The notes below the pieces were generated by a model that was not told where the DNA came from, ran no database searches, and saw only the letters and a list, made by a program, of their open reading frames with translations. A stretch of 64,000 nucleotides of DNA from an uncultured Gammaproteobacteria bacterium (lineage in GTDB: Bacteria; Pseudomonadota; Gammaproteobacteria; Burkholderiales; Usitatibacteraceae). How positions within the stretch are numbered: position 1 is the first letter of the stretch; each line of letters starts with the position of its first letter. The stretch is taken from positions 28,920 through 92,919 of the forward strand of contig CAWAOC010000002.1 in assembly GCA_963783635.1 (NCBI GenBank), written 5' to 3'. Shown in pieces: positions 8,673 through 53,381 of the stretch. A program made the translations under genes and the position numbers.

Positions 8673-11462
8673 ATGGTCACCCGGCTTTTCTCCCGCACTC
8701 CCCTTCACGAGCATCCCGAGGCCGCGCAGCGGATCCTGGGCGTGGAGCAACTCCCCCCCGATTCCGCCGAGCTGGCCGCCCTCGTGGCCGCCGATCCGGC
8801 ACCGGAAGTGCGCGCGGCCGCCGCCGCGCGCTGCGCCGATCTCTCCGCGCTCGCGAACGCCTGGGAGAAGGAAGCCGACGCCGGGGTCCGCGACGCGCTG
8901 GCCGCCGCGCTGGGCCGCGTCCTTTCCGGGACGCCCGACGGCGCCGCCGCCCGCGCGTTCCTCGAGTCCTCCGCCTGCAACGACGCCATCCGCGCCGACG
9001 TGGCCCGCCACGCCAAGGACGCCGACCGGCGCCTCGCCGCCATCGCGAGCCTGCGCGACGAGGCGCTCCTCGTCGAGCTGGCGATTTCCGGCGGGACACG
9101 CGGAAACGCGGCTCGCGGCCGCCGAATGCGTGCGCTCCCCGGAGGGGCTGCGCGCCCTGGTCGACGCCGCCCGCAACAAGGACCGCGGGGTGGCGCGCCT
9201 CGCCAAGCAGCGGCTGGAGGCGCAGCAGGACCGCGAGGGGCAGGCGAGCGAAGCCGACGCGATCCTCGCCCAGCTCGAGGCCCTGGCCGGCACGCCCGGC
9301 CCCATCCTCACGGCCGTGGTGGACCTCAATCGCCGCTGGCAGGCGCTGGACATGCGCGAGGACGCCGCCCGCCTCGAGCGCTGCGACGCCGCGCGCCGCG
9401 CGCTGCAGGCGCGCTTCGACCGCGAGCAGGCCGAGCAGGCGGCGCGCGCGAAGTTCGAGCGCCGCGTGAACGACTGGATCGGCGGCGCTGGCCGCACCCG
9501 ACGGCCCGGACGCGCTCGCCGGCCTGCGCGCCGAGCTCGCCGCCCTTCGCGACGAGGCGGCCGCCCTCGGCGACGAAGCCGGCGCGCGAACGCCTCGCGC
9601 AGGCCGGGACGCGCATCGAAGGCTGGGAGCAGGAACTGAAGGCGCTCGCGGGCGCCGAGGCGCTGGTCGTCGAGGCCGAGCGCCTGGCCGCCGACACCTC
9701 CGTGGACAACGCGCAGCTTCCGGAGCGCTGGCAGGCGCTGGACCGCGCGATCCGCACGCCGGCGCTCACGCGCCGCTTCGAGGCGGCGCTGGTGGTGGTC
9801 GAGCAGCGAAGGCTCGCGCAGGCGCAGGTCGCGCGCGAGGAGACGCACGCCGCGCGAAACCGCGTGCACGCCCTGCTGCTCGCGGCGGAGCAGGCGCTCG
9901 CCGCGGGGCAGCTGCACGCGGCGCGCGCCGCGGTGGACGAGATGAAGACGATCAAGGGCGAGGCCGGCGCGCTGCCGAAGCCGACCCAGCAGCGCATGGG
10001 CCGCGTCGGCCAGCAGCTGGGCGAGCTGGAGCGCTGGGAGTCGTTCGGCCAGCAGAGCGCGCGCCTGCAGCTTTGCGAGCGCGCCGAGGCGATCCTCGCG
10101 CAGGGCCTGGACGCCTCCCGCACGGCCGCGGAAGTGAAGAAGCTGCGCGAGGAATGGAAGGCGCTCGACGCGCAGCACGCGGGCGTGCCGCGCTCGCTGT
10201 GGGAGCGCTTCGACGGCGCCTGCGAGAAGGCCTACGCGCCCGCCGCGCGCCATTTCGCGGAGCTGGCGGCGCAGCGCAAGCTCGCGCGCAAGCAGCGCGA
10301 GGACTTCATCGCCGCCGCCGCCGCGCACGCGCCCACGCTGCTCGGCGAATCGCCGGACCCGCGCGCCATCGAGCGATGGCTGCGCGAGACCGACCGCGCC
10401 TGGCGCGAGGGCGAGCTGGGCAGCGTCGATCCGTCCGCGTGGAAGAAGCTCGACGCGCGCCTCAAGGAAGCGCGTCGCCCCGCTGCGCGCCGTGCTGGGC
10501 GAGGCGCGCGAGCAGGCGAAGAGCGGCCGCCTCGCGCTCATCGCCGAGGTCGAGGCGCTGATGCCGCGCGCCATGGATCGCGAGGCGCCCTCGCTGGTGA
10601 AGGCCATCCAGGCGCGCTGGCAGGAGCACGCCAAGGCCCACCCGCTCGCGCAGCGCGACGAGCGCGGGCTGTGGGAGCGGTTCCGCGCCGCCTGCGACGC
10701 CGTGTTCGAGGCCCGCCACGCCAAGCGCAAGGAGGAGGACGGCCGCAAGGTCGAGGGCCGCCGCTCCCTCGAGGAGATCTGCATCCAGCTCGAGCAGCTC
10801 GCGAAGGCGAGCGACAAGGACGAGAAGGACGTGCGCGCGCAGTTTCGCGACCTGCAGGACCGCTGGCGCGCCGGCGCCCGCGGCGCCGACCCGGCGCTGC
10901 GCGCCGCTCGAGGGGCGGTTCCGCAGCGCGGTGAAGGCGGTGGAGGGGGCGCTCTCGGCGCGCGCGCGGACGCGCGAGGCGGCCGTCTGGAAGACGCTCG
11001 CCGCAGAAGGAACTCCTGTGCGAGGCGCTCGAGGCCGCCGTGCTTTCCGGCGGCGACGCCGGCTCGCCCGACGCGGCGCGCGAGCAGTGGGCCGCCCTGC
11101 CCGAGCTGCCGCCGGCCTGGGAGAAGAAGATGCTCGCGAGGCGCGATGCCGCGCTCGCCGCGCTCGCCGACGCCGCTGCGGCCGGCGCCTACCGCCCGCG
11201 CCTCGAGAAGGGCGCGGAGACCCGCCGCGAGGGGCTCCTCGAGCTCGAGATGGCGATGGGGCTCGAGAGCCCCGCGGACCTCCAGCCGCAGCGGCTGGCG
11301 CTGCAGGTGAAGCTCCTCAAGGAGCGCTTCGGGGGTGCCGCCACCGGCCCGGCCACGACCGGCGATCGCCTGCTCGCGTGGTGCGCGCAGCCCGGCGTCG
11401 TCGACGGGCGCGACGGCGAGCGCCGCGACCGCCTGTTCGCCGCGATGGGGCAGGCGCGATAG
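8673..11462 (+). pseudogene. DUF349-domain protein (about 930 codons); about 7 frame breaks
   Basis: Repeated DUF349-type modules are present: RWQALDRAIRTP, EEWKALDAQHAGVPRSLWERFDGACEKAY, ARWQEHAKAHPLAQRDERGLWERFRAACDAVF. The pieces are spread over ORFs 8673, 9130, 10492, 10931 and 11040. Confidence 0.7.
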
Positions 11463-38550: not shown

Positions 38551-38615
38551 GGGGCGCCAGGGAAAGGGGTCGGATCCCATTTTCGCAAGGAAAACGGGAT
38601 CCGATGCACCCTTTT

Positions 38616-39368
38616 TTACATCTGCTTGAAGAGGTGCGAGTAGATGCGCGAGACGGTGAGGGTCTCGTCCTTGCCCTTCACCTTGATGTGCGCCTGGCCG
38701 CGGAAGTCGCGCGTGACGCCCGCGATCGCGTTCACGTTCACGATGGCGGAACGGTGGATCTGCCAGAAGGTGTCGGGGTCGAGGCCGTCGAGGAGCTCGC
38801 GGATGGGCGTCTTGATGAGCGCCTCGGAGTCCGCCGTCACCACGCGCGTGTACTTTTCATCCGACTGGAAGAAGAGCACCTCGGCCACGGGAATGAGGCG
38901 CAGGTTCTGCCCGAAGCTCGCCTTGATCCACTGCAGCTTCTCCTTGCCCGCGCCGCCGCGCAGCTGCGTCGCGAGCTGCGAGACGATGGCGTTGAGGTCC
39001 GGCGGCGGGCTCGCGAGCTTGGCCTTCAGGCGCTCGATCGTCACCGCGAGGCGCTCGTCGGTGTAGGGCTTGAGGATGTAGTCGACCGCGCCCGTCTCGA
39101 AGGCCTGGATGGCGTACTGGTCGTAGGCGGTCACGAAGACGACGTGCGCGCGGTTGCCCACGTGGCGCGCGACCTCCACGCCCGTCATCTCCGGCATCTG
39201 GATGTCGAGGAACATGAAGTCGGGCGCGCGGTCCTCGAGCGCCTCCAGCGCCGCGGCGCCGTCCTCCACGGACGCGATGACCTCGAGCTCCGGCCAGAGC
39301 TTCTCGAGCTTCGACTCGAGCTGCTCGCGCAGGATCGGCTCGTCTTCGGCGAGGATGGCGGTCGGCAT
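38616..39368 (-). CDS. LytTR-family response regulator (RR1)
   Basis: Intact 250-codon ORF. The receiver domain reads ILAEDEPILR...FLDIQMPEMTG...VFVTAYDQYA. The LytTR domain reads IPVAEVLFFQSDEKYTRVVT...FWQIHRSAIVN. Confidence 0.9.
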   Translation of the reverse strand: MPTAILAEDEPILREQLESKLEKLWPELEVIASVEDGAAALEALEDRAPDFMFLDIQMPEMTGVEVARHVGNRAHVVFVTAYDQYAIQAFETGAVDYILKPYTDERLAVTIERLKAKLASPPPDLNAIVSQLATQLRGGAGKEKLQWIKASFGQNLRLIPVAEVLFFQSDEKYTRVVTADSEALIKTPIRELLDGLDPDTFWQIHRSAIVNVNAIAGVTRDFRGQAHIKVKGKDETLTVSRIYSHLFKQM

Positions 39369-39377
39369 GCGCGAATC

Positions 39378-40930
39378 CTACCGCTTGAGCGCCCGCTTGA
39401 GGATCTTGCCGGTGGCGGTCATCGGCAGCGACTCCACGATCTCCACGATGCGCGGGTACTTGAAGCTCGCCATCCGCTCCTTGCACCACGCGATGACCGC
39501 CTCCGGCGTGGCCTGCTTGCCGGGGCGCAGCACGATCACGGCCTTCACCTCCTCGCCGTGGGTCTCGTGCGGCACGCCGATGACGGCCACCTGCGCGATG
39601 GCCTCGTGGGTCATCATCACCTCCTCGAGCTCGCGCGGATAGACGTTGAAGCCGCCGCGGATCACCATGTCCTTCAGGCGGTCGACGATGTAGAAGTTGC
39701 CCGCCTCGTCCATCTTGCCGATGTCGCCGGTGTGGAACCAGCCGTCGCGGATCGCCGCGGCGGTCGCCTGCGGGTTGCGGTAGTAGCCCTTCATCACGTT
39801 GTGGCCGCGGATCACGATCTCGCCCGGCTGGCCGGGCGGCAGCGGCGCGCCGGCCTCGTCCACGATGCGCATCTGCGTGCCCCAGATGGCCTGGCCGACG
39901 CTGCCGGGGATGCGCGGGGCGTCGAAGGAGCTGAACGTGGCCACGGGGCTCGTCTCCGAGAGCCCGTAGCCCTCGAAGATCGGGATCGCGAAGCGCTCCT
40001 CGAAGCGGCGCATCACCTCCACCGGCATCGCGGCGCCGCCCGAGATGCCCACGCGCAGCTTCGCCGCGATGGCCTTCAGGTCGTGGCGCTCCTCGGCGCC
40101 GGGCAGGTTCAGGATCGCCATGTACATCGTCGGCACGCCCGCGAAGATGGTCACCCCGTGCTTCTGCATGCGCGGCGAGCGCGGCGTCCGGGTCGAAGCG
40201 CGGCAGCAGCACCATCGAGGCGCCGCACCACAGCACGGCGTTCATCTGCACGCTCTGGCCGAAGGAATGGAAGAGCGGCAGCGCCACCAGGTGGCAGTCC
40301 GCCGCGCCCATCCGCGCGATCATGCAGGAGTTGAAGGCGTTCATCGCCAGGTTGGCGTGCGAGAGCTCCGCGCCCTTGGGCCGGCCCGTGGTCCCCGAGG
40401 TGTAGAGGATGACGGCGGTGTCGTTCGCGTCGGCTTCGGCGCAGGGGCCCTCGCCGGGCTGGCCGTGCATGAAGGCGCCCAGCGTTCGCGCCCCCTCGAT
40501 CGGGGAGGGCTTGGCGGGGTCGCCCGTGATCACGACGAACTCGGGGCACTTGCCGTACTGCACGAAGCCCGCGTGGCCTTCCTTCCCCAGCGGCAGGTCG
40601 GCGCTGCCCTCGAAGCAGAAGAACAGCCTTCGCCTGCGCGTCCTCGAGCTGGTAGGCGATCTCGGGCGCCTTGCCGAGGATGCTCACCGGCACGACCGTG
40701 GCGCCGGCCTTGAGGATGCCGTAGTAGACGATCGGGAAATACGGCAGGTTCGGGCACGCCAGCGCCACGTTGTCGCCGCGGCCGATGCCCAGCGCGCGCA
40801 GCCCGTTCGCCACGCGGTTGGCGGCCGCGTCCAGCTCCGCGTAGGTGATGGTGCGGTCGGCGAAGAAGATCGCCGCCTTGCCGGGGTGCACCTGGGCGCC
40901 CCGCTCGAGGCCCTGGGCCAGGTTGATCAT
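39378..40930 (-). pseudogene. Long-chain fatty acid-CoA ligase (AMP-binding, FadD-like); 2 frame breaks
   Basis: AMP-binding motif ILYTSGTTGRPKGAELSH, plus EGYGLSETSP, WFHTGDIG and ATGKILKR. The breaks are near 40625 and 40170. Confidence 0.85.
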
Positions 40931-40947
40931 CGACGATCCTCCGTTGC

Positions 40948-42096
40948 TCAGAGCGAGCGGGAAATGAGTTCCTTCATGATCTCGTTCGAGCCGCCGTAGA
41001 TGCGGGATACCCGCGCGTCGGCCCAGGCGCGCGCGATGGGATATTCCCACATGTAGCCGTTGCCGCCGTGCAATTGCAGGCAGGCGTCGATCACCTTGCA
41101 CTGCAGGTCCGTGCACCAGTACTTCGCCATGGAGGCGGTGGCCGCGTCGAGCGTGCCGGCGAGCACGAGCTCCAGGCAGCGGTCGACGAACACGCGCGCG
41201 ATCTGCAGCTCCGTCTTCGCCTCCGCGAGCGTGAAGCGCGTGTTCTGGAACTCCAGGATCGTCTTCCCGAAGGCCTTGCGGTCGCGGCAGTAGTCGAGCG
41301 TCCAGTCGAGCGCCGCCTCGGCGAGCGCCACCGCCGTGAGGGCGATCTGCAGCCGCTCCCAGGGCAGTTCCTGCATCAGGTAGGCGAAGCCCCGGCCTTC
41401 CTCGCCGAGGCGGTGGCCCGCGGGCACGCGGACGCCGTCGAAGAAGAGCTCGCCCGTGTCCTGCGCCTTGAGGCCCACCTTCTCGAGCCGGCGGCCCTTG
41501 GTGAAGCCCGCCATGGTGGTATCGACCACGAAGAGGCTCGTGCCGCTGGCGCCGCGCGAGGCGTCGGTCTTCGCCGCCACGACCACGAGGTCGCAGTGGA
41601 AGCCGTTGGTGATGAAGGTCTTGGCGCCGTTGAGCACGTAGTGGTCGCCGTCGCGCACGGCGGTGGCGCGGATGCCCTGCAGGTCGGAGCCGGCGCCCGG
41701 CTCGGTCATCGCGATGGCGCCGATCAGCTCACCCGTCGCCATTCTCGGCAGGTAGGCGCGCTTGAGGTCCTCGGTGCCGTAGTGCAGGAGGTAGGGCGCG
41801 ACGATGTCCGAGTGCAGCGACCATCCGAGGAGGCTCACCGCCCCCAGCCGCGCGGTCTCCTCGAAGACCACGACGCTGTAGCGCCGGTCCGCGCCCGCGC
41901 CGCCGTACTCCTCCGGCATCGTCGGGCACAGGAACCCGGCCGCGCCGCCCTTCAGCCAGATGTCGCGGTCGATGAAGCCCTGCTTCTCGTGGCGCTCGCG
42001 GTGCGGCAGCACCTCGGTGACGACGAAGCGGCGCAGGGCATCGCGGAATTGTTCGTGCTCGGGCTCGAAGAGCGTGCGCGGGATGGAGAAGGCCAT
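40948..42096 (-). CDS. Acyl-CoA dehydrogenase
   Basis: Intact 382-codon ORF: AIAMTEPGAGSDLQGI...FITNG...QLHGGNGYMWEYPIARAWADARVSRIYGGSNEIM. Confidence 0.9.
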   Translation of the reverse strand: MAFSIPRTLFEPEHEQFRDALRRFVVTEVLPHRERHEKQGFIDRDIWLKGGAAGFLCPTMPEEYGGAGADRRYSVVVFEETARLGAVSLLGWSLHSDIVAPYLLHYGTEDLKRAYLPRMATGELIGAIAMTEPGAGSDLQGIRATAVRDGDHYVLNGAKTFITNGFHCDLVVVAAKTDASRGASGTSLFVVDTTMAGFTKGRRLEKVGLKAQDTGELFFDGVRVPAGHRLGEEGRGFAYLMQELPWERLQIALTAVALAEAALDWTLDYCRDRKAFGKTILEFQNTRFTLAEAKTELQIARVFVDRCLELVLAGTLDAATASMAKYWCTDLQCKVIDACLQLHGGNGYMWEYPIARAWADARVSRIYGGSNEIMKELISRSL

Positions 42097-42105
42097 CCGG
42101 GCATT

Positions 42106-44320
42106 CTAACCGGCGGGCGGCTCTTCCCTGGGCAGCGGGGGCGGCGTGGACGGCGGCGCAGGCGCGGCGGGCGCCGGCGGCGGCGCCGGCTGCATCACGG
42201 GCTCGACCTTGGGCCGCGGCGCCGGGGCCGGCTCGGGCACTTTCGTCTTGCGGAAGAGCCACCAGCCGAACAGCCCCAGGAGGGCCACCGGCGCGAGCGC
42301 GGGCGACAGGGCGATCAGGACGACCACCGGGATGAAGATCGCCAGCGCCAGGAAGAGCCAGCCCAGGCCGTAGACGATCGCGGCCAGGATGCCCAGCACG
42401 AGCACGATGGCGGCGAAGGCGATCACGATCCCCGCGGCGCCGAGGAGCGCCCCGCCCGGGCCCGTGAGCGTCTCCGAGCCCACCTGCACCGGCATGGCGC
42501 CCGTGAGCACGGCGAAGACGCGCGAGGCCGGCCAGCACGGCGGCCACCACCACCAGGGCCACGAAGGTGAACGACAGGCGTCTTCCGCCAGGTGCGCTCG
42601 GCCTTGCCGACCACGGCGATCACCTTGCCGGCCCGCGTCTTCGGCTCGGCCGGCTGGGCGGGCGCGGCATCGGCGGCGAAGGCGCCCGTGCCGACCGGCG
42701 GCATCGCGGCCGGCGGCTTGAGTCCCTCCAGCGGCGCCTCGATGGTGGCGATGACGCCCGTGGGCGAGTTCGACTCCAGCGTGAGCTTCGCCTTCTCGCC
42801 GTAGAGCGCGACCAGCCGCTCGCGGATGTTGGCGAGCCCCACGCCCGCGCCGACGGTGTCGCCGAAGCCCGCGGCCGGTGTCCGACACCGTGAGGCGCAG
42901 CTTCCCGTCCTGCGCCTGCGCGGAGATGAGCACGGCGCCGCCCTCGCGCTGCGGCTCCAGGCCGTGCTTGATGGCGTTCTCGACGAGCGAGGGCAGCATG
43001 AGCGGCGGGAAGGGCGTGGCCAGCAGGCTCTCGGGCACGGAGATCTCGAAGGAGAGCCGCTTGCCCATGCGCATCTGCAGGATGTTGAGGTAGGCGCGCA
43101 CCAGCTCGACCTCCTGCCCGACGGTCGAGATCGACTCGCGCATCTTCGGCAGCGCGTTGCGCAGGTACTGGATGAGGTGGCCCACCATCGTGTGGGCCCG
43201 CGCCGGGTCCACCTCGGTGAGCGCCTGCACGTTGGCGAGCGTGTTGTAGAGGAAGTGCGGCTCCACCTGCGCCTGGAGGGCCTGCAGCTTCGCCTCCGTC
43301 ACCTGCTGGCTCATGCGGTGGTACTCGGCCTCCTTCCTCTTCAGGTCGGCCATGCGCTGGGCGGCGCGCGAGCGGTCGATGAAGAACTTCGCGATGGCGG
43401 TGAGGATGAAGAGCGGGATGAAGATCAGCACGAGGGCCGCGCCGATGCCGATCTTCTTCAGGTCCCCGCTCACGTTCTGGCGGATCTGCGCGCGCAGCTC
43501 CGGCGGCAGCGGCGCCACCACCACGCCGCCGGGACCCCCGATGTGGACGCCGCCGATGGCGGGCGGGGTGGGCGGCTCCGGCGGCTTCGGCGACGCGCCC
43601 TTGGTCGCGTCGTCGAGGTCGATCGTGATGGAGCCGCTCGGCCCCTTGCCGCCGGAGCCGAACTTGAGCACTTCGACGCGCGGCTTCTCGCCGGGCGCCG
43701 GTCTTGCGGGATCGATGTCGACCAGCGCGCGGTCCTTGCCGGGGCCCACGTCGATGACGATCCGCTTGGGCGCCCTGGCTCGCTGCCGGTCCCTGGCGAG
43801 CGCCTTCTTCGCCTCCTCCTCGGCCTCCTTGGCCGACTTGAGCGACTGCTCGAGCGCCTCCCTCACCTTCGTGTTCTCGACGCCGGCGTCCTTGAGCGCC
43901 TCCTCGGCGCTGCGGCGGGCCTCCTCGATGGCCGTGGCGGCATCGCGGGCCGCCTCCCGCGCCGTGTCGACCGCCTCGCGCTTGGCCCGGAGGACCTCGC
44001 GGCCGGCGTCGCGCAGTTCCGCGCGGGCGCTGTCGAGCTCCTCGAGGGCGCGGTCGAGCTCCTCGCGGCGGGCCGGGTCGGAGGTGGCCCCGCGCATGGC
44101 GAGGATCGTGCTCCTGCGCGATGTCCATGGCCCCTTCGGCGAAGGTGTTGTCGATCTCGCGCTTGATGGCCTTGTTCTCGTCCGGCGTCGCGCCTTCCTT
44201 CCGGTACTCGATGAGGTGGAAGGGGGTCACGAAGACGGCGAGCGCGATCACGACGGCGAAGCCGCCGAAGACGAGGCCCCACCAGGGCGTGCGGTGGATG
44301 AAGTCGGAAAGGGGTTTCAT
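42106..44320 (-). pseudogene. LytS/YehU-type sensor histidine kinase (HK1) with atypical N- and C-terminal regions; at least 3-5 frame breaks
   Basis: Motifs are QVEPHFLYNTLANV (His_kinase PF06580 type), LVENAIKHG and GVGLANIRERL. One N-terminal TM is followed by about 200 residues of charged coiled-coil-like sequence and a second TM. A hydrophobic, Pro-rich tail follows the ATPase domain. Confidence 0.8.
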
Positions 44321-44371
44321 GGATTCGGGGATCGCGGCGCCCCCGGAAGATACCCGGAAGGGCGCCAATGG

Positions 44372-44482
44372 TCAGTAGTCTTCGAGCATCGCCACGGCGG
44401 CGATGGCCACCGACAGCATCAGCACGCCGTAGAAGACGAACAGCGAGGAAAGCGACGGTGCGAGCGACTGGATGAACGACAT
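44372..44482 (-). CDS. 36-codon hydrophobic ORF (MSFIQSLAPSLSSLFVFYGVLMLSVAIAAVAMLEDY)
   Basis: The ATG is preceded by CAGGGAGCC. One predicted TM. It lies 51 bp upstream of HK1 and downstream of the repeat-containing promoter-like region. No homology is known to me. Confidence 0.4.
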   Translation of the reverse strand: MSFIQSLAPSLSSLFVFYGVLMLSVAIAAVAMLEDY

Positions 44483-44532
44483 GGTCCGGCTCCCTGTGGT
44501 CTTTGGGCCCCTCCGGGGGGCTCGATGGAGCC

Positions 44533-44604
44533 AGATTAGGGGGGTGCCGGGGCCGGGGCGACGGGCAGGCGCCGAAATGCAGGAAACGGGGGGCGAAATG
44601 CAGG
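44533..44604 (-). promoter_or_regulatory. Promoter-like region: CCTGCATTTCG-N10-CCTGCATTTCG-N34-TAATCT (minus strand)
   Basis: Plus-strand repeats are at 44594..44604 and 44573..44583, with the -10 at 44533..44538. The repeats have 21-bp phasing. There is no good -35, consistent with activator dependence. Confidence 0.55.
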
Positions 44605-44635
44605 CGGCGGGGACGGCCGGCATTGAAGCCCGAGC

Positions 44636-45422
44636 CTACATCTGCTTGAACAGGTGGGTGAAGTTGCGGGAGACGATGAGCGTCTCCCGGTGGCCCTTGA
44701 GGGCGATCTCGGCCTGGTCCTTGAGCCCCCGGCGGACGGAGGCGATGTGGTCCACGTTCACGATGGTGGCGCGGTGGACCTGCCAGAACTTCTCGGGGTC
44801 GAGCTCGTCGAGGAGCTCCTTGATGGGCTTGCGGATGAGCGTCTCGGCCTCGCACGTCACCACCCGCGTGTACTTCTCGTCGGACTGGAAGAAGAGGATC
44901 TCCTCGACGGGGATGAGGCGCACGCTCTGCCCCACGCTCGCCTTGATCCAGCGCAGGTGGTCGCCGTTGCGCGCGGCGCGAGGCGGCTCGCCAGGCGCTC
45001 GACCAGGTCGTCCATGGCCGGCGGGGCGCCGGAGAGCCGCTCCCGCAGCCGCTCGACCGTGGTCGCCAGGCGCTCCTCGTTGAAGGGCTTCAGGACGTAG
45101 TCGATGGCCCCCTGCTCGAAGGCCTCGACCGCGTACTGGTCGAAGGCGGTCACGAAGACGACGTGCGCGCGCTTGCCGACCACGCGCGCGGCCTCCAGGC
45201 CGTTCACGCCGGGCATGTGGATGTCGAGGAAGAAGAGGCTCGGGGCGTGCGTCGCGACCACCTGCTCGATGTCGCGGCCGTTCTCCATCTCGTGGACGAT
45301 GGCGAGCTCGGGCCAGAGCCGGGCCAGCCGCGCGCGCAGCTGCGCCCTCAGCAGGGGTTCGTCGTCGGCGATGACGGCGCTTGCGCGACCACGATCCGCG
45401 GTGACGGCGTCGGCGTTCCCAT
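44636..45422 (-). pseudogene. LytTR-family response regulator (RR2); about 2 frame breaks
   Basis: VIADDEPLLRAQL...FLDIHMPGVNG...VFVTAFDQYA, then RWIKASVGQSVRLIPVEEILFFQSDEKYTRVVT...FWQVHRATIVN. Confidence 0.8.
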
Positions 45423-45434
45423 GGGGCGGCAGTA

Positions 45435-46537
45435 TCAGGCACACGCGCTCGCAACGGAAGATGCCGGCGCCGGCGCGCCAGCCGGGGCGGGGACGTCCAC
45501 CTCGATCGTCGCCACCACGCCGCGCGGCACGTTCTCCTCGATCACGAGGCGGGCGCCCGTCCCGTAGAGGGCCTTCAGGCGCTCGCGGATGTTCGTGAGG
45601 CCCACCCCGGTGCCCTTCTTCGGCGAGATGCCCTCGCCCGTGTCCGCCACCGACAGGCGCAGGCGCCCGCCCTCCTCCCGCGGCGCGGATGGTGATCGTG
45701 CCCGCCTCGCAGCAGGGATCGACGCCGTGGATCACCGCGTTCTCGACGAGGGTGATGAGCATCATGGGCGGGAACGGCCGGCAGCGCAGGTCCTCGGGGA
45801 CGTCGAGCACGTAGTCGAGCCGCGAGCCCATGCGCATGCGGTGGATGTCGAGGAAGGCCTTCGACATGTCGATCTCGCGGCCGACGGTGGTGGAGTCCTC
45901 CCGCATGCGCGGCAGCGCCGCGCGCAGGTACTGGATGAGGCTTTCCAGCATGCGCGAGGCCGAGGCCGGATCGGTCTCGACGAGGTGCTGGACGTTCGCG
46001 AGCGTGTTGAACAGGAAGTGCGGCTCCACCTGCGCCTGCATGAGGGCGAGCTGGGCCTGCAGGACGTTCTTCTCGAGCTGCGCGCGCTCGGCCTGGGCGC
46101 GGGCGAGCTCCGCCGCGCTGGCGCGATTGCCGCTCGCGGAAGACGTAGACCCACACGGCCATGCACCCGAAGCCGATGCCCAGCCCCATGGTGATGAGCA
46201 CGCCGTAGTAGCGCTCGGTGAACATCGTCGCGATGTCGCGGCCCTTCACCACGCCGGCGAGCATCGTGCCGAGGAAGGAGCCCACGACGATCGAGGCGAC
46301 CTGGATCGCCCAGCGCGGCAGGCGCTGGCCGCGCAGGTTCGTGGCGACGGTGAAGAGGACCATGCTGGTGTAGCCCACGCACAGGGCGCTCACGAGCAGG
46401 TCGAGGTAGGTGTTGGCGAAGAACCAGACGATGGCCGCCGCCGCCCAGACGCACAGGACCGTGACCAGCAGCACGCGCCTGGGCGTGAGTCCCTCGAGGA
46501 GGTAGGCGTAGCGGTTCACGGCGGCCGGGGAGGACAT
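45435..46537 (-). pseudogene. LytS-type sensor histidine kinase (HK2), about 4 N-terminal TM segments; about 2 frame breaks
   Basis: QVEPHFLFNTLANVQHL, LVENAVIHG and GVGLTNIRERLKALYG are present. It ends 12 bp upstream of RR2. Confidence 0.8.
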
Positions 46538-46848
46538 GAAGTCGCCGGAAGGGTATCAGTTGCCGGCGGTGCTGACGCGGTCGCGCGGCTTCCAGCGGCC
46601 GGCGATGCCCGGGCGGGAGGCGGTGAAGAACTGCGCCGGCCTTTGCGACACCGGGCGGAGCGGTTCCGGGGTCCCGAGGCGGGCGATCCAGGGTGCGGGC
46701 AGGGGGCGGGTGGGTCGGTTCATGGGCGGGCTCTCTGGATTCGAAGGCTACGCGGGGCGATTCGCCGAAACCACCGTCCTGCGACGAAACGCGCCGGCGG
46801 GGGATCGGAATGCGCCGGGACAGGGCATTTGGGGAGGGTCAGGCTTTC

Positions 46849-46874
46849 GGGGACGTGTCCGCGAACACGTCCCC
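46849..46874. repeat. REP-B copy 3 (GGGGACGTGTCCGCGAACACGTCCCC, 1 mismatch)
   Basis: Read directly. It is intergenic. Confidence 0.8.
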
Positions 46875-46900
46875 AAAAAAGACCCGGCCGAAGCCGGGCA
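46875..46900 (-). terminator. Rho-independent terminator CCCGGC-TTCG-GCCGGG + TCTTTTTT (minus strand)
   Basis: Canonical GC stem, tetraloop and T6 tract, 27 bp downstream of the small ORF stop at 46927. Confidence 0.65.
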
Positions 46901-46926
46901 GGGGGATCGAACTACTTGGGGAGAAT

Positions 46927-47055
46927 TCAGGCGCCGACGACCATGGCGCCGACGGTGACCGCGAAGGTGAGCGCAAACCAACCGGCGATGACCGCCGTGA
47001 TCGCCGTGGAAACCCGGAAGGCGCGTGGCGGAACGACCCGGTCGAGGGTGGCCAT
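46927..47055 (-). CDS. 42-codon hydrophobic ORF (MATLDRVVPPRAFRVSTAITAVIAGWFALTFAVTVGAMVVGA)
   Basis: The ATG is preceded by AAGGGGGAC. One predicted TM. A terminator follows. Confidence 0.35.
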   Translation of the reverse strand: MATLDRVVPPRAFRVSTAITAVIAGWFALTFAVTVGAMVVGA

Positions 47056-47065
47056 GGCGTCCCCC

Positions 47066-47358
47066 TTACGGGCGGAAGGCGAAGGGCAGCGCGACTTCGA
47101 GCGACGGGCCGCCGGTCGAGCCGGACCGCGGCGGTGCGGGTCGACCGGGCGGGGCTGCCCGCGTTGCCGTTTTCGGCGGTCACGGTGAGCTTCATGGCGC
47201 CATCGTTCGAGAGGGTCACGGCGTTTCCGTGCGCTGCGCTCGCGGGCCGGCTTCGCGATGGCTTCGTGCGTGGTCACCATCCAGCCCACCAGCAGGGCGG
47301 CGGTGACGGCGGCCAGCGACGAAACACCGATCAGGTCCAGCTTCTCGACTTTGCTCAT
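47066..47358 (-). pseudogene. Small signal-anchored hypothetical protein (about 97 codons if two frame breaks are bridged)
   Basis: The ATG at 47358 is preceded by GAGGGAGAG. The translation is MSKVEKLDLIGVSSLAAVTAALLVGWMVTTHEAIAKPA, then HGNAVTLSNDGAMKLTVTAENGNAG, with a possible end ...GGPSLEVALPFAFRP* at 47066. The reconstruction is speculative. Confidence 0.3.
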
Positions 47359-47411
47359 GGCGACTCTCCCTCTACGGCTCGGCACCCGGCGGGTGCGTTC
47401 GACTTGCCGCC

Positions 47412-47482
47412 AGATTAAGGAGGCGCGAGGGGGGCCTGAAGCGGAAAGCGACGAAATGCGGAAAAGGAGGGGCGAAACGCCG
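47412..47482 (-). promoter_or_regulatory. Paralogous promoter-like region: CGGCGTTTCG-N11-CCGCATTTCG-N34-TAATCT (minus strand)
   Basis: Plus-strand repeats are at 47473..47482 and 47452..47461, with the -10 at 47412..47417. Phasing (21 bp) and repeat-to-minus-10 distance (34 bp) are the same as at 44533..44604. Both regions share CCAGATTA(A/G)GG. Confidence 0.5.
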
Positions 47483-47518
47483 CCGGACGGGGGGTATGCG
47501 GAATCCCGGCCGCGGAAA

Positions 47519-48968
47519 TCAGGCCCCGGCGTGGGTGCCGTGCCGGGCGTCCTTCACCAGCTGCGGGGCGTAGGACCCCACGGCGATCCCGATGGCGGAG
47601 GCCGCGAGCCCGACGATCTGGGGCGGGATCTCGGCGTCCGCGAAGAACTTCTCGCAGATGCCCCAGACCACCAGGCCCACCACCGAGGAGACGAGCGCGC
47701 CCTGGGTGGAGGCGCGGTGCCAGTAGATGCCGCAGACGAGCGGCACGAAGGCCCCCACCAGCGTCACCTTGTAGGCGTTCTGCACCATCTCGTACATGGT
47801 GCTCGTGTTGTTGAGCGCGAACACGAGCACGCCCGCGGTGAAGAAGACGAGCACCGTGCGCAGCATCACCAGGAAGCGCTTGTCGCTCATGTTGCCGAAG
47901 AGCGGCTTCACCACGTTCTCGGTGAAGAGCGCCGTGGGCGCCAGGAGCGCGCCCGAGGCCGTGGACAGGATCGCCGACAGCAGCGCCCCGAAGAACATCA
48001 CCTGCGCGAAGATCGGCGTATGGGCGAGGACGAGGTTGGGCAGGATGAGCTGCACCTCCCGCCCTTCCGTCTTGAGGAGCGGCTCGACCATCTTCGGGTC
48101 GACGAGGAGGGCCGCGTAGGCGAGGAAGATCGGCACGAAGGCGAAGCAGAAGTACGCCGCCGCCCCCAGGAGCGAGCCCTTGATCGCGGTCTTCTCGTTC
48201 TTGGCGCTCGTCACGCGCTGGAAGACGTCCTGCTGCGGGATCGAGCCCACGGCCATCGTGACCCAGGCCGCGACGAACGCCCACCACTCCTTGCTCCCGC
48301 CCGTCGGCCAGAACTGGAACTTGCCGGCGGCGGAGGCGTGCGAGACCACCGTCCCGAACCCGCCCGCCATGCCCGAGACGAGCACCGCCACGTAGATGAG
48401 GCCCACCACGATGACCACCGACTGGAAGAGGTCCGTCAGCGCCACCGACCACATGCCGCCGAAGGTGGTGTAGACGAGGACGATCACCGCGCCGATGAGG
48501 ATGCCCTGGTCGAGGCGAGATGGCGCCCTGCGAGAGGGAGTTGAAGACGATGCCCAGCGCCGTGAGCTGGGCCGAGGTCCACCCGAGGTAGGAAAGGGTC
48601 ACCGCGAGGCTCGTGAGGACCTCCACCCCCTTGCCGTAGCGCTTCTTGTAGAAGTCGCCGATGGTGAGGAGGTCCATGCGGTAGAACGCGCGGGCGAAGA
48701 AGAGCGCCACGAAGACGAGGCAGAAGCTCGCCCCGAACGGGTCCGCCGGGATGCCGCCCAGGCCGTCCTTCACGAAGGTCGCCGAGACGGAGAGCACCGT
48801 CTCCGCCCCGAACCAGGTGGCGAAGACCGTCGCCGTGTTCATGTACAGCGGCAGGCCGCGGCCGGCCACCAGGTAGTCCTTGGAGTTCGAGACGAACTTC
48901 GCCGCGTACAGGCCGATGGCGATGGTGACGACGAGGTAGGCGAGCGTGAAGAAGACGAGCGTGGTCAT
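47519..48968 (-). pseudogene. Sodium:solute symporter (SSS) family transporter; 1 frame break near 48510
   Basis: MTTLVFFTLAYLVVTIAIGLYAAKFVSNSKDYLVAGRGLP...TWFGAETVL continues in ORF 47519..48487. Confidence 0.85.
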
Positions 48969-49087
48969 GGCGGGGCGGCCCGGAAGGATTGCGCGCGAGT
49001 CTAGCAAAAACGATGTTGCACCGCAGTAACCGTCCGTACGTACCCGGTACAGGTCACCTGCGTCCCCAAATGGTACGGTTCCCGACC

Positions 49088-53230: not shown

Positions 53231-53381
53231 GCGCCTTCCTTGCTGGGTTCCGGCAAGACAAGCGCGATTCTATCGTGCCGATGGAACGAAACGCGCATTT
53301 CGGGGAATGAACGGTAACCCGCGCCCCGGCGCCGCGCCGGATAATTCGCGTGTCCCGTTCAACGCGTCATTCGCCCTCGAC

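Follow-up and report, generated by a model that had tools for sequence, protein, structure and literature searches.

A candidate LytTR-dependent promoter ahead of small membrane-protein genes in a Usitatibacteraceae two-component locus

On the minus strand of a 64,000-nt stretch of Usitatibacteraceae DNA (hereafter the window, meant at its full length), two short direct repeats precede a -10-like hexamer between a sodium:solute symporter gene and genes for small hydrophobic proteins, close to two histidine kinase/response regulator (HK/RR) pairs. What kind of element this is, which protein might act on it and what it might control are the questions raised by this locus. An original prediction, made from the letters of the DNA, had described the element (here S2) as a paralogous copy of a second repeat promoter (S1) that heads two small ORFs and ends at a terminator. 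We compared S2 with its surroundings, with homologous loci and with known systems. It is best read, with a probability of about 0.8, as an activator-dependent sigma-70-type promoter whose operator consists of paired LytTR half-sites. As an element S2 is real and well conserved, and of an ordinary, known kind; its small-protein output is uncharacterised.

Sequence and geometry of S2 and its sister promoters

Direct reading of the minus strand gave GCGTTTCG-N13-GCATTTCG-N34-TAATCT at 47480-47412. This agrees with the original prediction, in which the same minus-strand block was written as 10-mers: CGGCGTTTCG (47482-47473), N11, CCGCATTTCG (47461-47452), N34 and TAATCT (47417-47412). If TAATCT is taken as -12 to -7, the distal half-site lies at about -75 to -68 and the proximal half-site with its conserved extension at about -54 to -39, the half-site centres being near -71 and -50. 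A promoter scanner detected no -35/-10 consensus promoter at S2, and no good -35 was found; this is what one would expect of a promoter that has a good -10 alone and depends on an activator. Given the indels in the window (see below), statements on single-base spacing rest on agreement with relatives.

S1 reads, as 10-mers, CTGCATTTCG, 11 nt, CTGCATTTCG, 34 nt, TAATCT (44603-44533). The architecture predicted to be common to S1 and S2 was borne out: both have the same kind of half-sites, and direct reading confirmed the 21-bp phasing and N34 distance (S1: 44601-44533) as well as the shared -10 context; the spacers between the repeats are alike at 9 of 13 positions. The count of two promoters has to be revised, because a third, S3 at 46813-46745, had been missed. 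The sequence GCRTTTCGKCGC occurs just three times in the 64 kb, in S1, S2 and S3. In relatives the S3 sequence before HK2 has a near-invariant proximal GCGTTTCGTCGCA and a degenerate distal half-site. The position of S3 ahead of sp55-HK2-RR2 implies a putative positive autoregulation.

The likeness of S1 and S2 had been interpreted as a duplicated regulatory module. The HK/RR gene pairs themselves are paralogous, with 54-67% identity. Alignment of the two promoter regions, which had been proposed as a check, gave a divided answer: half-sites, spacer and -10 were alike, but the remainder was no closer than composition predicts (17/34 identities in N34, permutation p=0.12; 10/30 and 14/40 in the flanks). 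Since the similarity is confined to the functional elements and is not significant beyond them, paralogy of the promoter DNA is not shown, and we did not retain descent from a common promoter. The needs of one LytTR-type regulator and of RNA polymerase would account for the shared geometry, so that co-regulated operators suffice and no duplication is required.

Further elements were noted as well. The S1 homologues of loci L005 (~1244-1275) and L009 (~10318-10350) carry an extra half-site-like copy (CGTTTCGCC / CATTTCGCC) ~20-21 bp before the distal repeat, which suggests a candidate three-site operator in these loci; in the window, the extra upstream copy of S1 is degenerate. Downstream of the -10, the S2 leader contains a hairpin, one pair of which covaries from A-U to G-C (4 vs 4 loci), and an analogous hairpin lies at the same distance past the -10 in the S1 leader (~44505-44522, minus strand). 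Both are GC-rich, and their stems differ among genomes yet remain paired. A U-run is absent downstream, so these hairpins are not terminators; they may act as a 5' stabiliser or as a pause/regulatory element. Finally, a head-to-head palindrome of the same half-site (CGAAACGC|GCATTTCG) is located on the plus strand at ~53287-53302, 14 nt upstream of a TAGAAT sequence. It belongs to the divergent intergenic stretch that precedes the ABC-importer operon, and it is conserved in L002 (~1533-1546). This palindrome may be a fourth site for the regulator, whose geometry would then be different and possibly repressive, or it may have nothing to do with the system.

Table 1. Features of the S2 locus in the window.
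Feature	Coordinates	Strand	Description and basis
SSF	47519..48968	-	Sodium:solute symporter; Pfam, synteny; conserved neighbour
S2 distal half-site GCGTTTCG	47473..47480	-	Direct reading; near-invariant in 32 orthologous loci
S2 proximal half-site GCATTTCG with conserved extension TCGCTTTC	47444..47459	-	Invariant alignment block
S2 -10 hexamer TAATCT	47412..47417	-	Exactly 34 nt past the proximal half-site
S2 5'-leader hairpin GCACCC-GCC-GGGTGC	47382..47396	-	6 pairs
sp97	47066..47358	-	Gene for a ~96-aa signal-anchored protein; tblastn of intact orthologues, GC3, family alignment, codon-position-3 bias
sp42	46927..47055	-	Intact ORF for a 42-aa single-TM protein (...AGWFALTFA...); second in the S2 operon
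Intrinsic terminator	46875..46899	-	GCCCGGC-TTCG-GCCGGGT then CTTTTTT; scanner match; 7-bp stem, 4-nt loop, T6
S3	46745..46813	-	GCATTCCG-N13-GCGTTTCG-TCGC, N34, TAGCCT; geometry identical to S1/S2
sp55	46556..46723	-	55-aa Pro/Arg-rich ORF ending ...RPGIAGRWKPRDRV...; immediately upstream of HK2
HK2	45435..46537	-	Four-TM block, PF06580 His_kinase and HATPase_c; Pfam
RR2	44636..45393	-	Response_reg and LytTR (PF04397); Pfam; candidate binder of S1-S3
S1	44533..44601	-	GCATTTCG-N13-GCATTTCG-GCGC, N34, TAATCT; conserved ~30-140 nt past the RR2 stop in 33 loci
sp36	44372..44482	-	36-aa hydrophobic protein (...FYGVLMLS...MLEDY); first gene past S1
HK1	42106..44320	-	~700 aa, PF06580 and HATPase_c, extra C-terminal TM region; Pfam
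RR1	38616..39377	-	Response_reg and LytTR (PF04397); Pfam; 94% identical to L002 RR1

Conservation of the promoters in related loci

A scan of reference genomes with the LytTR domain of RR2 yielded 77 loci from Usitatibacteraceae and other Betaproteobacteria, mostly MAGs together with the complete genome GR16-43 (single loci are given by their L numbers). An alignment of S2 from 32 related Usitatibacteraceae loci showed a (near-)invariant block GCGTTTCG-N13-GCATTTCG-TCGCTTTC, an invariant T, A and final T in the -10 hexamer and zero gaps between the repeats and the -10. The 30 nt upstream were unconserved, and ~20 nt after the extension, in the middle of N34, were variable. S1 showed the same footprint behaviour in the relatives. 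A phylogenetic footprint with fixed -10 spacing upholds the earlier claim that S2 is a promoter and not a product of chance.

Strict matches to the box in 970 kb of related DNA were all found on the strand of the regulator and at S1 or S2 positions. With a relaxed box and a required -10, 59 of 66 matches fell on S1, S2 or S3 positions, and the remaining 7 were these units again, in loci that are rearranged or more distant. The combination of promoter and small ORFs recurred in related genomes, as the original prediction had proposed to check, within a conserved synteny: SSF, [S2], small TM protein(s), [S3], (sp55), HK2, RR2, [S1], (sp36), HK1, RR1. The closest relatives have S2, a strong SD and an intact 95-100-aa protein followed by a 41-42-aa protein; more distant relatives have a single 72-105-aa protein. 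L001 has neither the terminator nor S3, and its S2 stands immediately before sp97-sp42-sp55-HK2-RR2, an arrangement that ties S2 to the HK2/RR2 pair.

A scan of metagenomes for the full box returned at least 120 stretches, at least 48 of which also have TAnnnT at N34. Seventy-two matches, among the matches listed, lack the -10 and were set aside as probable chance hits, the database being very large. About 25 contigs among the matches listed form a second lineage with an identical box, N34 and TAATGT or TAATCT (including L082, L085, L088, L092, L137, L153 and L155). Here the box is followed by a ~70-aa signal-anchored protein, an RR and an HK, the reverse of the HK-RR order. The ~70-aa protein has a basic N-terminus, a TM helix and the sequence '...ERVVIVAKR', an architecture similar to that of sp97; homology to the sp97 family was not significant in a profile-profile comparison (probability 0.5%, E=0.12).

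Small proteins, kinases and regulators of the locus

On the minus strand, an ABC importer (SBP, two permeases) and SSF, whose end lies 39 nt before the distal half-site of S2 (47480), are followed by S2-sp97-sp42-terminator, S3-sp55-HK2-RR2, S1-sp36-HK1, an acyl-CoA dehydrogenase, an acyl-CoA ligase and RR1. Comparison with the intact L002 orthologues revealed frame breaks in SSF (1), sp97 (2), HK2 (2), RR2 (1) and HK1 (3), and 0 in RR1. The nine breaks lie within ~7.5 kb, near 48505, 47240, 47110, 46080, 45680, 44970, 44116, 42873 and 42550. They are probably assembly indels, every fragment having 70-95% amino-acid identity to the intact orthologues. Pseudogenes were considered as an explanation and rejected, because the fragments keep this identity and the breaks affect most locus genes checked against intact orthologues. 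With assembly indels, ORF-based annotation of window positions 38600-49000 is fragmented, and the gene models rest on relatives.

The first gene of the S2 operon is a case in point. It had been predicted as a 97-codon ORF at 47358-47066, but this span of 293 nt is not a multiple of 3, and the ATG at 47358, read in a straight frame, runs to a stop at 46927. According to GC3 and tblastn, sp97 is spread in the window over three successive frames (47358-47239, 47234-47106 and 47113-47069): GC3 switches frame twice, with the breaks near 47240 and 47110, and intact orthologues match in tblastn in frames -2, -3 and -1 in succession. The gene is intact in L001, L002, L008, L009, L011 and L015. A profile search found at least 626 members of the sp97 family, all annotated as 'hypothetical' and none with a Pfam domain. 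In their alignment one TM helix contains a Trp that never varies, and the C-terminus carries the motif '...TITVEAxR' (TV-A strand motif); AlphaFold gave a confident TM helix with an extended remainder (mean pLDDT 67.5) and no fold. Three context look-ups starting from sp97-family proteins each placed the protein between SSF and a PF06580-HK/LytTR-RR pair, with a separately called 34-36-aa gene between two kinase/regulator pairs; in these three look-ups, the family is always found beside this kinase/regulator pair.

The other predicted parts of the operon held up well. The 42-codon ORF at 47055-46927 is intact and conserved, with 41-42 aa in 8 close loci, 58-76% identity and 54% of the differences at codon position 3. 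The Rho-independent terminator was found by the scanner with its stem at 46899-46882 and a T-run to 46875; it is conserved in 7 of 8 close relatives, L001 lacking it, with stem changes that preserve pairing. Two more small ORFs precede the kinases. sp55 has orthologues of 53-61 aa, with the ending RPGIxxRWKPRDRV, in ~16 loci with coding-like substitutions, is not hydrophobic and lacks a signal sequence. sp36 is conserved in ~19 loci, again with coding-like substitutions, and was called as a 34-36-aa gene in independent assemblies. Across the four small ORFs, 49-60% of pairwise differences fall on codon position 3 and 15-24% on position 2; this bias shows that all four are translated and under selection. 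Pfam searches with sp97, sp42, sp36 and sp55 gave nothing above noise, and Rfam at E<=1 had no match over the locus.

For the kinases, the original prediction of tiny hydrophobic ORFs next to LytS-like kinases was right in part: small hydrophobic ORFs and adjacent kinases are present, but the kinases are of the PF06580 type without the 5TMR-LYT and GAF domains of LytS. In the intact orthologues of HK2 and HK1, Pfam detected PF06580 and HATPase_c only; 5TMR-LYT and GAF were absent. The N-terminus of HK2 has four hydrophobic stretches by direct reading, and its intact L002 orthologue is 363 aa long with PF06580 starting at residue 158. HK1 has an unusual domain arrangement (L002 10741-12870), with an N-terminal TM segment, ~200 aa of charged, coiled-coil-like sequence and a second TM segment ahead of the PF06580 core, then an extra multi-TM region and a Pro-rich tail at the C-terminus; a weak, sub-threshold match to the PP0621 family was also seen.

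RR1 and RR2 are 66% identical in their LytTR domains. The best NCBIfam matches of RR2 were BtsR and LytR, with both RR2 and RR1 below the cut-offs (BtsR model: 130-133 bits vs a cut-off of 246). A PDB sequence search with RR2 returned receiver-domain matches only, which are uninformative on DNA recognition. The acyl-CoA dehydrogenase and AMP-binding acyl-CoA ligase genes lie between HK1 and RR1 at 39378-42096 (minus strand) of the window; a dehydrogenase is likewise inserted there in L003, and in most relatives RR1 directly follows HK1. The inserted acyl-CoA genes and the conserved SSF hint at a link to organic-acid or fatty-acid metabolism.

A short ORF behind a LytTR box and ahead of a kinase gene is a familiar layout. 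In agr, comCDE and plnABCD, LytTR boxes (9-10 nt, spacer 12 nt) stand ahead of a short ORF and an HK-RR operon and mediate positive autoregulation; plnABCD has two regulators. The S2 locus resembles these systems in the placement of its boxes and, like plnABCD, has two regulators. One might thus take S1-S3 as LytTR operators and the small ORFs, which lie directly before each kinase in a comCDE/plnABCD-like order, as peptide signals sensed by the kinase that follows, in an autoinduction of the agr/com/pln kind. We regard this as improbable. The kinases belong to the PF06580 family and not to the AgrC/ComD type, and the conserved neighbourhood is devoid of peptide-processing or export genes. Instead of resembling secreted peptides, sp97, sp42 and sp36 consist largely of a TM helix and look membrane-retained; sp55 has no signal sequence, and a double-glycine leader was not seen.

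Known LytTR systems and a proposed regulon

LytTR operators have been defined as two direct (or inverted) repeats of 9-11 nt, 11-13 nt apart (PMC4847170). S1, S2 and S3 all have this form, with 10-mers set 11 nt apart (or, counted as 8-nt cores, N13) in 21-bp phase. LytTR-domain regulators, RR2 and RR1, are encoded within the system, and the operator lies just upstream of a core promoter with a good -10 and a poor -35, the conserved TAnnnT being found at an ungapped N34 in 32 loci.

The closest match was found in YpdA/YpdB (PyrS/PyrR)-yhjX, where the YpdB half-site in PyhjX is GGCATTTCAT and cooperative binding to two sites recruits RNA polymerase (PMC4847170). By direct reading, PyhjX of E. 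coli K-12 is GCATTTCA-N13-GCATTTCA-N34-TATGGT, the -10 being our own reading of TAnnnT. Both systems share the core GCATTTC, the 21-bp phasing and a T-rich stretch just past the proximal repeat; the equality of N34 rests on the TAnnnT read in PyhjX. The flanking bases differ, with (C/T)(C/G/T)GCATTTCG here versus GGCATTTCAT, and RR2 is only 25% identical to YpdB, which does not amount to orthology to YpdB/BtsR; the shared half-site core could be convergent. Unlike the LytS-type YpdA, with 5TMR-LYT and GAF, HK2 and HK1 lack both domains, and the candidate targets here are mini-proteins and the system's own genes, with three operators in one locus, versus an MFS transporter. Judged on these differences, the S2 locus is not a YpdAB system.

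HK2 can be likened by architecture to AlgZ(FimS) of Pseudomonas aeruginosa, a ~360-aa PF06580/HATPase kinase with a ~150-aa four-TM N-terminus and a LytTR partner (PMC4064291): it has four TM segments within ~150 aa, no periplasmic or GAF domain and a PF06580 core. AlgR sites are single 9-mers, CCGTTCGTC, between -702 and +391 (PMC4064291). The S2 proximal site GCGTTTCGTC has TTCGTC in common with this 9-mer, although only 7/9 positions match ungapped, and S1-S3 differ from AlgR operators in that they are paired in phase and keep a constant distance to the -10. The neighbourhood here contains no alginate or pilus genes.

With regard to the small proteins, MgrB-PhoQ and ScrA-SaeS are pairs in which a small membrane protein from the regulon of a sensor kinase modulates that kinase (PMC8404706, PMC12239555). 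Very small single-pass membrane proteins are also found here, their membership of the regulon being deduced from the box only. They differ from MgrB and ScrA in having neither sequence similarity nor a Pfam match, in being four different mini-proteins and in that two are predicted to be co-transcribed with a kinase.

These comparisons bear on another explanation, in which the repeats are operators of a different, unlinked transcription factor controlling the locus. Some other regulator families also use direct repeats in 21-bp phase, and the palindrome at ~53287-53302, conserved in L002, is atypical for LytTR. This explanation is a poor candidate, however, as LytTR regulator genes accompany the box in two separate lineages and the box agrees with the operator definition published for LytTR and with the half-site core of YpdB, and lies ahead of the regulator's own operon in the classic layout of autoregulation.

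Part of the S2 block could alternatively be the intrinsic terminator of the SSF gene, made up of a hairpin around the distal repeat and of the TTTT behind it. The scanner indeed flagged a 5-bp hairpin with a T-rich tail at 47484-47471, and 13 of 32 relatives, with strong cases in L011 and L059, have a possible hairpin of <= -8 kcal/mol whose end lies immediately before the T-run. Such a hairpin is lacking in the other 19 of 32 loci, comparison with shuffles gives a mean z-score of only -0.9, and the conserved bases are those of the half-site itself and not its pairing partners. The motif is moreover found again 21 bp further downstream and in S1 and S3, places without a comparable gene end. 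A terminator is therefore a very unlikely account of the conserved block, and the distal repeat may have a dual role in some genomes.

The control against shuffled sequence that the original prediction had called for was passed. In the window, GCRTTTCG-N13-GCATTTCG had 2 exact matches and 1 match with two mismatches, versus 0.10 expected from dinucleotide shuffles. The full geometry (<=2 mismatches in the half-sites, TAnnnT exactly 34 nt downstream) matched three times, at 47480, 46813 and 44601, all on the minus strand and within 3 kb. A functionless chance resemblance in GC-rich intergenic DNA, for which the high GC content alone would speak, is practically negligible given 0 of 300 second-order Markov simulations with even one full-geometry match versus 3 observed, and position-specific conservation in dozens of genomes.

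For S2 as an activator-dependent promoter with paired LytTR half-sites we propose the following model. Two phosphorylated LytTR regulators (RR2 and/or its paralogue RR1) would bind cooperatively to GCGTTTCG and GCATTTCG, which lie 21 bp apart on the same helix face with their centres near -71 and -50, and would recruit RNA polymerase to a promoter with TAATCT and no usable -35. The predicted transcript would start near 47405 with a 5' hairpin, encode the ~96-aa signal-anchored and the 42-aa single-TM protein and end at the terminator at ~46875. S3 would drive sp55-HK2-RR2 in a positive autoregulation, and S1 would drive sp36-HK1 and probably what follows up to and including RR1. The locus would thereby form a small, self-contained regulon of two paralogous PF06580-kinase/LytTR-regulator pairs and four mini-proteins. 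The analysis establishes the sequence architecture, its conservation, the gene content and selection on the small ORFs at the protein level; which regulator binds, activation upon binding and the role of the small proteins we infer from the sequences. By analogy with MgrB-PhoQ, the mini-proteins might be membrane partners or feedback modulators of the intramembrane-sensing kinases, a role that we put forward tentatively, at roughly one-in-three odds in our judgement. Broader, and somewhat doubtful, is the idea that the sp97 family, together with sp42, sp36 and sp55 of this clade and the ~70-aa protein of the second lineage, could be integral third components that gate or feed back on AlgZ-like PF06580 kinases, within a widespread autoregulated module with YpdB-like boxes.

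The analysis provides a testable regulon for a pair of uncharacterised two-component systems in Usitatibacteraceae, which are represented here almost exclusively by soil and sediment MAGs. This regulon comprises three operators with a defined half-site and four conserved mini-proteins that are missed by most annotation pipelines. A YpdB-like half-site and spacing next to a regulator with only 25% identity to YpdB is also relevant to DNA recognition by LytTR domains. If the mini-proteins do modulate the kinases, the MgrB paradigm would extend to the PF06580/LytTR class; if they are indeed third components, a widespread module of small protein, PF06580 kinase and LytTR regulator would exist that is invisible to current annotation.
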